This document shows, one piece after another, positions 1,664 through 2,503 of a DNA stretch of 4,963 bases (its first letter is position 1; each line of letters starts with the position of its first letter). The notes below the pieces were generated by a model. It saw only the letters and a program-made list of their open reading frames with translations. It searched no databases and was not told the DNA's origin. The position numbers and the translations under genes are program-made. The DNA is from a virus (taxonomy: Duplodnaviria > Heunggongvirae > Uroviricota > Caudoviricetes): the IMG/VR virus record IMGVR_UViG_2778261702_000019; one strand, 5' to 3'.

Positions 1664-2215
1664 TTACTGACCTTTCTTAAGGTACAAGTTTATTAGGAAA
1701 AATATAGTTGGCATAGCAAGCGAGGCCAAGAGAACCCCGAGCATCCATACTTTTACATCTGCTATCTTGGTTTCCAAAGCGGAAAATTTAGCTTCAAAGT
1801 AGTCAACCGATGGTTTCTTAGATAATGAAGCATCAAAATCCAGGCTCTTCTGTAAAAGTACAGCGGTGTCTCTTTTGGCGTCAGTAGAATCAGAAGATAT
1901 TTTCCGGGTATCCTCTTTAATTCCTGCCATGCTGCTCTTGATGTGCGCAACTTCAGCTTCAAGAACTGCTAATCGCTTATCCATGTCGTCGCCTCCATCA
2001 TCACTTGTTGTTTGAATGATCTCAGTATCATCCATCACAACCGATGTGACAATCCGTTTTTCTTTATCTGAAGCAGCAACAGAACAAGCTTTCATCAAGA
2101 GCGTTGCTTGGCTTGATGCTACAGAAGAAAATTCCAGCCCTACTGTAGAGCCATTCTTATCAGAGTAAGCAATTACTAGCTTTCCCTCATCCAAAGATGA
2201 TTGAGCTGCATTCAT
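1664..2215 (-). CDS. Hypothetical protein, 183 aa: soluble N-terminal region, acidic linker, coiled-coil, single C-terminal TM helix
   Basis: ORF with SD GAGGA 7 nt upstream of the ATG; the upstream gene's TAA stop lies inside that SD region, indicating translational coupling. Hydrophobic segment VWMLGVLLASLAMPTIFFLINLY near the C-terminus followed by LKKGQ. Heptad-like region LAVLEAEVAHIKSSMAGIKEDTRK. No family recognised from memory. Confidence 0.75.
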   Translation of the reverse strand: MNAAQSSLDEGKLVIAYSDKNGSTVGLEFSSVASSQATLLMKACSVAASDKEKRIVTSVVMDDTEIIQTTSDDGGDDMDKRLAVLEAEVAHIKSSMAGIKEDTRKISSDSTDAKRDTAVLLQKSLDFDASLSKKPSVDYFEAKFSALETKIADVKVWMLGVLLASLAMPTIFFLINLYLKKGQ

Positions 2216-2221
2216 CAGCTT

Positions 2222-2503
2222 TTATTCCTCGAACATGCTTTTCAAGGACTGATAGAAATCGAAGGCCTTCTGTTTACTTAAAGTCACGGACGCAACCTTA
2301 GTGCGCTGCATTCCTGCCACTGCGATTTCGCCATTCATATGGCCGATGACAGGGGTGCTATTGAGAAAAACGAAGTTAAAAACTTCGTAGCCATTGTTAT
2401 CCGTTCCGATGGTTACAACCCCATCAGCATTAGTTTCAATATAATTTTTGGACTCCAGCACATCATTGATATGTGCTAAGGAAACTTCTTGTTTATCGCT
2501 CAT
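2222..2503 (-). CDS. Hypothetical protein, 93 aa, soluble; first gene of the two-gene cassette
   Basis: ORF with strong SD AGGAGA 8 nt upstream of the ATG at 2503. Its stop is 6 nt before the start of the downstream 183-aa ORF. No hydrophobic segments. No family recognised. Confidence 0.7.
   Translation of the reverse strand: MSDKQEVSLAHINDVLESKNYIETNADGVVTIGTDNNGYEVFNFVFLNSTPVIGHMNGEIAVAGMQRTKVASVTLSKQKAFDFYQSLKSMFEE

Follow-up and report, generated by a model that had tools for sequence, protein, structure and literature searches.

The 4,963-nucleotide (nt) window analysed here, which is the whole stretch of DNA held in IMG/VR record IMGVR_UViG_2778261702_000019, is the immunity region of a lambdoid prophage, with 100% identity to the Stx1 prophage Sp15/CP-933V/VT1-Sakai and 99.5% identity to phage HK544. 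Read from left to right, it carries sieB, N, oL/pL, a terminator, two minus-strand open reading frames (ORFs), cI, cro, cII and O. The subject of this work is the cassette formed by the two ORFs, referred to as ORF93 and ORF183 after the lengths of their products, with the spacer and terminator that flank them; it is best classed as accessory or defence cargo linked to a prophage repressor and drawn from protein families that lack a characterised member. The features of the cassette, together with the adjoining repressor gene, are as follows.

1634-1657, minus strand: intrinsic terminator (9-bp stem, 5 GC, T-run), which closes the unit and forms the right edge of the mobile unit
1664-2215, minus strand: ORF183, 183 amino acids (aa), PHROG 12602
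2222-2503, minus strand: ORF93, 93 aa, PHROG 12039
2504-2625, minus strand: 122-nt spacer from the cI stop codon to ORF93, which moves with the cassette and holds the ORF93 Shine-Dalgarno sequence (AGGAG, 2511-2515)
2626-3273, minus strand: cI repressor, 215 aa, with helix-turn-helix and Peptidase_S24 domains

A preliminary description of this DNA, made from the sequence alone, had placed two closely coupled minus-strand ORFs between cI and oL/pL, oriented as cI and followed by an intrinsic terminator. This arrangement is confirmed by the ORF list, in which the ORF93 stop and the ORF183 start are separated by 6 nt (minus strand GAGGAA TAA AAGCTG ATG), and by the hairpin and T-run at 1657-1634, which depositors have annotated as the terminator of the pRM transcript in AP000400 (VT1-Sakai) and as Timm in EF120455 (HK544). 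The Shine-Dalgarno sequence of ORF183 (GAGGA) overlaps the 3' end of ORF93, and that of ORF93 lies 7 nt 5' of its ATG. A simple scan of the 122-nt spacer revealed no match to a sigma-70 consensus promoter. Given the position of the cassette, and since neither a promoter nor a terminator was found between it and cI, we infer that it is co-transcribed with cI; it is most likely driven by the cI promoters, with read-through being the simpler model. The ORF93 start codon itself (2501-2503) is ATG in the window and GTG in HK544 and most relatives (loci L020, L021, L031-L034 and others).

The association with a repressor gene extends well beyond this prophage. At 30 of 30 IMG/VR loci the ORF93 homologue is situated directly 3' of a repressor gene and in the same orientation, and 6-7 nt 5' of a partner gene encoding 170-183 aa. 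The same gene order is present in E. coli Rac-like prophages, in Serratia and in metagenomic contigs, and is retained in ORF93 relatives at 33-35% identity and in a Salmonella P22-like prophage, the latter found via the wider protein family described below. At least 12 repressor types precede the cassette, many of them less than 50% identical to one another, and these range from the true lambda cI (HK544) to short RacR-like proteins without a protease domain. When near-identical cassettes at eight loci with six other repressors were aligned, identity was found to begin at approximately 2626, the cI stop codon, and the other boundary of the cassette was located just past the terminator, at approximately 1630. 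Because of these sharp boundaries, the mobile unit consists of the spacer, the two genes and the terminator, approximately 1 kb in all. The attributes of a moron are present, namely a discrete unit with sharp boundaries and its own terminator, expressed in the lysogen. At the junction of the Sp15 repressor gene, where the repressor and lambda/HK544 cI have identical last residues (...QWPEETFG), DNA identity is already 83% over the last ~30 nt of cI (window 2626-2660); since identity rises within cI, the recombination joint in this comparison lies inside the end of the repressor gene.

The cassette had been recorded before, uncharacterised, as 'conserved hypothetical' in the HK544 immunity-region record and as PHROGs 12039 and 12602, whereas the joining of the 1-kb unit to the stop codon of at least 12 repressors is a new finding. 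Among 5,426 complete E. coli genomes, 105 carry the window-type cassette and 13 the Rac-type; scans of contigs representing one genome per species were nearly empty. Published work describes the interval between cI and N as a mosaic hotspot in which accessory genes, rexAB and bstA among them, are found (PMC8585504; PMC7067206).

Evidence for expression was drawn from published microarray and proteome data for uninduced O157:H7, which had not previously been interpreted for ORF93 or ORF183. The products of both genes were detected by mass spectrometry, and ORF183 was associated with a high microarray signal. In lysogens the ORF183 protein is found with the membrane fraction, at an abundance of roughly 10^3 APEXi units. 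Mass spectrometry detected it only in a detergent-solubilised fraction of >280 kDa, labelled IM, and it thus behaves as part of a large detergent-soluble assembly. The cI repressor was seen once only, at rank 818 in one fraction, and the cassette products belong to the prophage proteins of higher abundance in lysogens. ECs2991 is one of 394 proteins quantified by iTRAQ, and strain 86-24 carries the cassette at 100% identity. Since they are present in these microarray and proteome data of uninduced lysogens, both proteins are made in the repressed state, which answers the question of lysogen expression raised in the preliminary description. The partial co-fractionation of the two proteins is compatible with, and no proof of, an ORF93-ORF183 complex; contact between them is inferred.

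ORF93 and ORF183 are both real genes, as judged from the conservation of their length and order in homologues, which extends down to 30-40% identity and across genera, from low ratios of nonsynonymous to synonymous substitution (approximately 0.04-0.1 for ORF93 and 0.12-0.23 for the ORF183 N-domain), and from the detection of both products by mass spectrometry. Purifying selection is evident on all three parts, i.e. ORF93, the ORF183 N-domain and the ORF183 C-terminal half. That the ORFs are non-functional leftovers in a recombination hotspot, as might be supposed from their designation as hypothetical in all databases and from a single frameshifted copy in Symbiopectobacterium, is accordingly considered extremely improbable; the abundant mRNA and protein, the purifying selection, and the order and length kept to 30% identity across genera exclude it.

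With respect to the proteins themselves, ORF93 is soluble, acidic and without a hydrophobic segment, and its structure model is of low confidence (pLDDT 45.7). ORF183 (model pLDDT 64.8) has a single hydrophobic segment at residues ~157-179 (KD19 maximum 2.15) and is tail-anchored by a single C-terminal helix, so that the pairing of a small protein with a membrane protein, proposed at the outset, holds for the two products. The parts of ORF183 are as follows.

2075-2188, minus strand: N-domain, beta-hairpin plus helix, residues 10-47 (pLDDT 70-81), which varies among cassettes
1985-2074, minus strand: acidic linker, predicted to be disordered, residues 48-77 (pLDDT < 50 for residues 59-75), ending in a conserved DGGD
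1820-1984, minus strand: long cytoplasmic helix/coiled coil, residues 78-132, from the model and the alignment
1679-1747, minus strand: transmembrane helix, residues ~157-179, from hydropathy, followed by LKKGQ

Residues R81, L85, E86, V89, I92 and K93 of the coiled coil are invariant. A second helix in the model (residues 137-182) includes the membrane segment, and hydropathy and the model place nearly all of ORF183 in the cytoplasm, with ~4 residues past the membrane helix. ORF183 has no hydrophobic leader, and the Cys that has been proposed is residue 44, which falls within the predicted helix 34-47 and is missing in several homologues.

Identity matrices calculated over nine diverged cassettes indicate that the cassette is a mosaic. 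ORF93 identity tracks that of the ORF183 N-domain (Spearman 0.89) and is unrelated to that of the ORF183 C-terminal half (Spearman 0.06). Thus the window and locus L048 share 35% identity in ORF93, 21% in the N-domain and 95% in the C-terminal half, whereas the corresponding values for the window and locus L031 are 83%, 81% and 45%. The breakpoint is the conserved DGGD-Met-x-Arg motif. On this basis we read ORF93 plus the N-domain as probably one module, and the coiled coil plus anchor as another. There is no homology between ORF93 and the N-domain (hhalign probability 0.1), and hence no signal of internal duplication.

The breakpoint motif coincides with a candidate second translational start within ORF183, the features of which are as follows.

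1992-1996, minus strand: internal Shine-Dalgarno sequence GGAGG, 7 nt 5' of the Met78 codon
1664-1984, minus strand: candidate short isoform, Met78-Gln183, 106 aa, predicted to comprise the coiled coil and membrane helix

Met78 is nearly invariant in the alignment, and GGAGG, GGGGG or GGGAG precedes it in 16 of 16 distinct sequence contexts, with a spacing of 7 nt in 15 of them. The internal Shine-Dalgarno sequence is kept even in relatives with different amino acids at those positions. Moreover, the codon of the first Gly is restricted to GGA or GGG (14 of 14 cases), while that of the next Gly is free to vary at its third base; the Fisher p value of this contrast, 3e-5, was calculated from sequences that are not independent. 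Predicted pairing with the 3' end of 16S rRNA is stronger for Met78 than for both annotated starts in 11 of 12 cassettes, with a tie in the remaining one; mean values are -10.95 kcal/mol for Met78, -6.3 for the ORF183 start, -6.9 for the ORF93 start and -1.1 for other ATGs. Public databases also contain many entries of 93-98 aa that start exactly at the Met78 equivalent, and many database entries of the family therefore start at differing codons of one gene. Because the internal ribosome-binding site is conserved, it is probable that translation yields a 106-aa form (1984-1664) in addition to the one of 183 aa.

A profile of this core, i.e. the coiled coil plus membrane helix, retrieves 339 proteins, the named sources of which are all Enterobacterales except for one Pseudomonas-labelled entry. 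N-terminal extensions before the core are of 0, 25-55 or ~78 residues. At 33 further viral loci the core gene lies, in most cases, behind a cI-, RacR- or Mnt-type repressor. The intervening gene varies, being of the PHROG-4231 type (94-105 aa), zinc-finger-like (112-137 aa) or of a 132-155 aa type, and at least four unrelated partner types occur across the core family when the ORF93 type is counted. There is no homology between ORF93 and the 94-aa partner in Salmonella phage UPF_BP1. The only context that does not fit the repressor-linked rule is that of a group of S107-like Salmonella phages (L013 3050-3794, L068-L073), where the core gene is found between Rha-type and tail genes; the partner in this group is zinc-finger-like, with the motif CPxCG...CxxC. 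In a Symbiopectobacterium metagenome-assembled genome (L014 3800-4347) the core gene directly follows cI and is split by a frameshift, with a different N-region of ~78 aa and no ORF93-type gene ahead of it. This copy is probably decaying in the symbiont genome.

In the Mnt case, the core-family pair lies between mnt and gene 16, in the place occupied by orf59a plus sieA in P22. The argument from position in the rexAB slot, on which the preliminary description had relied, is strengthened by these relatives in the sieA slot and by the twelve or more repressors that precede the cassette. The sieA location also bears on the possibility of pure superinfection exclusion, in which the tail-anchored protein would block phage DNA entry at the inner membrane without cell death, as for P22 SieA, T4 Imm and HK97 gp15, and ORF93 would be an assembly or stability factor. 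The constitutive presence of ORF183 in the lysogen membrane fraction, at the level given above, and the presence of sieB in the same prophage can be added in its favour. However, the known injection blockers each consist of one protein, and similarity to SieA is absent. Nor would a block at the periplasmic face readily account for a cytoplasmic N-domain and a cytoplasmic partner that diversifies rapidly, since almost all of ORF183 is cytoplasmic, with only those ~4 residues beyond the membrane helix. This explanation is consequently regarded as unlikely.

The variety of partners is relevant, in turn, to an addiction (toxin-antitoxin-like) or host-fitness role, whereby ORF93 would neutralise a membrane-toxic ORF183, or the pair would alter envelope or stress physiology, for example in the ruminant gut. 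Relatives with wholly different partners, including the one in which no ORF93-type gene stands between cI and the core gene, do not sit well with such a role, nor do the small expression changes or the absence of homology to any toxin-antitoxin family. This type of explanation is given a low probability, and it overlaps with the anti-phage explanation set out below, as modules of the toxin-antitoxin type are often defence systems.

Profile comparisons with PHROG families yielded a lead as to what the core might resemble. PHROG 937, annotated as 'hemolysin', is matched by four of nine core variants (best E 2e-7), PHROG 1193 by three of the nine, and a holin/antiholin PHROG by one of the nine; one core relative is named 'Hemolysin XhlA' by UniRef. 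The core variant of the window itself has no PHROG 937 match at E <= 0.01, and Pfam XhlA (PF10779) was matched at E 0.7, below threshold, in one search and went unmatched in another. The core may thus be distantly XhlA-like, the similarity constituting a lead as opposed to evidence of membership.

A role in the biology of the phage itself, for example in the timing of lysis, control of the holin, induction or the stability of lysogeny, analogous to XhlA or to the reported regulatory roles of RexA/RexB, would accommodate this weak similarity to XhlA-type 'hemolysin' and holin/antiholin PHROGs. It would also accommodate the occurrence of the core family only beside phage regulatory genes, the S107-type relatives near structural genes as opposed to repressors, and the candidate dual start, a design typical of holin/antiholin pairs. 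Conversely, the unit is exchanged freely among phages whose repressors, replication modules and lysis genes are unrelated, it has its own terminator in the manner of an accessory moron, and its expression is high in the repressed state, in which the lysis genes are silent. In addition, HK544-like and lambda-like phages without the cassette are viable, lambda having rexAB at this position. A role intrinsic to the phage is judged improbable on balance.

Searches against known families were otherwise uninformative, in line with the initial impression that the proteins resemble neither RexA nor RexB nor any recognised family. Scans of both proteins against Pfam, NCBIfam and PADLOC returned nothing significant, with no match to any curated family or PADLOC defence model, and PHROGs 12039 (ORF93) and 12602 (ORF183) are both families of unknown function. 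A Foldseek comparison of the ORF183 model with BFVD gave nothing with E < 0.1 and no informative structural neighbour, so that the profile and structure checks suggested in the preliminary description (Pfam, PADLOC and Foldseek in BFVD) were made with nothing significant found. Profile matches to the PDB, obtained with the ORF93, ORF183 and N-domain alignments, were coiled-coil noise only. The large repetitive proteins retrieved in a HMMER representative search (P0046, P0048, P0055-57) were repeat artefacts and were set aside.

Taken together, it is tentatively proposed as the best-supported reading, with confidence that falls a little short of an even balance, that the cassette is a lysogen-expressed accessory system that acts at the inner membrane against other phages. 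This proposal is made because of the occurrence of the family in two independent exclusion-gene slots, the linkage to repressor promoters, the high expression in lysogens, and the design of a conserved core with variable partners. [quoted passage not shown] The effector would be the coiled-coil and tail-anchor core of ORF183, situated in a large membrane assembly and made in two forms, of 183 aa and, from Met78, of 106 aa. ORF93 and the ORF183 N-domain, as a fast-diverging pair, would act as a specificity or control module that restrains the effector until it senses an infecting phage. Either the membrane might then be perturbed, leading to premature lysis or to abortive infection of the Rex-like kind, or genome entry might be blocked.

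A number of observations weigh against this proposal. No example of the cassette was seen outside prophage regulatory regions, such as in chromosomal defence islands, and for that reason a phage-intrinsic role would also fit. PADLOC-DB 2.0 has zero families for ORF93 or ORF183 at E <= 1, and no phenotype or function of the cassette genes emerged from literature searches that covered the loci and their accessions, phage HK544, tail-anchored exclusion proteins and XhlA in defence. The covariation of ORF93 with the N-domain may reflect physical linkage alone, as the two pieces are adjacent in the DNA, and the Gly-Gly motif that precedes Met78 might serve as a hinge in the protein as opposed to a ribosome-binding site. 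Furthermore, the XhlA-like similarity is weak, lies in coiled-coil sequence and misses the Pfam XhlA threshold (E 0.7), and the structure models of ORF93 and ORF183 are of low to moderate confidence.

A broader version of the anti-phage proposal, which is possible although doubtful, is that the cassette represents the first member of an extensive, so far unrecognised family of modular prophage defence systems, in which a two-isoform XhlA-like effector would be combined with interchangeable sensor partners (the ORF93, zinc-finger, PHROG-4231 and 130-155 aa types), always on the repressor promoter and acting only in lysogens. Both genes belong to well-established experimental models, namely the Stx1 prophage of E. 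coli O157:H7 and phage HK544. Should they exclude phages, they would represent a new protein family among the repressor-linked defences (RexAB, BstA and SieA), and true exclusion could affect which phages, including Stx phages, superinfect enterohaemorrhagic E. coli.

The neighbouring genes on the left of the window are as follows.

281-862, plus strand: sieB (Pfam SieB E 1e-25; PHROG 1301)
879-1181, minus strand: N (N_peptide)

SieB is a recognised superinfection-exclusion gene adjoining N, ~800 bp from the cassette, and the same prophage therefore already has one recognised exclusion gene. The N ORF in the window is of 100 aa and public records give 90 aa (273 nt), hence the true start of N is uncertain. 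At the other end of the window, the O gene (start 4044) is broken by an IS3-family insertion sequence at ~4250-4963, with a transposase ORF at 4255-4953 on the minus strand; the element is annotated as IS1203/IS629-type in matching O157 genomes. Since O is interrupted here and is intact at the corresponding place in Sakai and EDL933, this copy of the prophage is probably replication-defective.

Among the closest known systems, lambda RexA/RexB is a positional counterpart. The cassette occupies the same slot between cI and oL/pL, in the same orientation, ends at the immunity-region terminator and is expressed in the lysogen, and both systems comprise two genes encoding one soluble and one inner-membrane product; in HK544 the cassette stands in place of rexAB behind a lambda-type cI. 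Rex excludes phages that include T4 rII, and membrane potential is lost in the process. However, there is no sequence similarity between the two systems, and the cassette proteins have no Pfam or PADLOC match at E <= 1. The soluble protein is of 93 aa as compared with 279 aa for RexA, the membrane protein combines a single C-terminal helix with a long coiled coil in the cytoplasm where RexB has four helices, and evidence for an internal second start is found in ORF183.

BstA of the Salmonella prophage BTP1, SieA of P22 and Stk of 933W are likewise encoded by accessory genes situated 3' of a lysogeny repressor gene and expressed in the lysogen. BstA and Stk are each a single cytoplasmic protein, to which the cassette proteins are unrelated. 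With SieA the likeness is one of location, a core-family pair taking the orf59a/sieA place, whereas no BLASTP alignment was obtained at E <= 100.

XhlA resembles the core of 93-106 aa in its layout of an N-terminal cytoplasmic coiled coil followed by a C-terminal membrane helix. XhlA, however, lacks the N-domain and a partner gene, is encoded in lysis cassettes of Gram-positive phages and is expressed late, and not from behind a repressor; all of the core contexts examined are behind repressors or in accessory regions, and not beside holin or endolysin genes. Finally, the candidate pair of ORF183 products is reminiscent of the S105/S107 holin and antiholin of lambda, in that one reading frame with two in-frame starts would give rise to membrane-active products, the ratio of which could set activity. 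In the cassette, however, the longer form would exceed the shorter by 77 residues, among them a folded domain, as opposed to the 2-3 residues that separate the lambda proteins.
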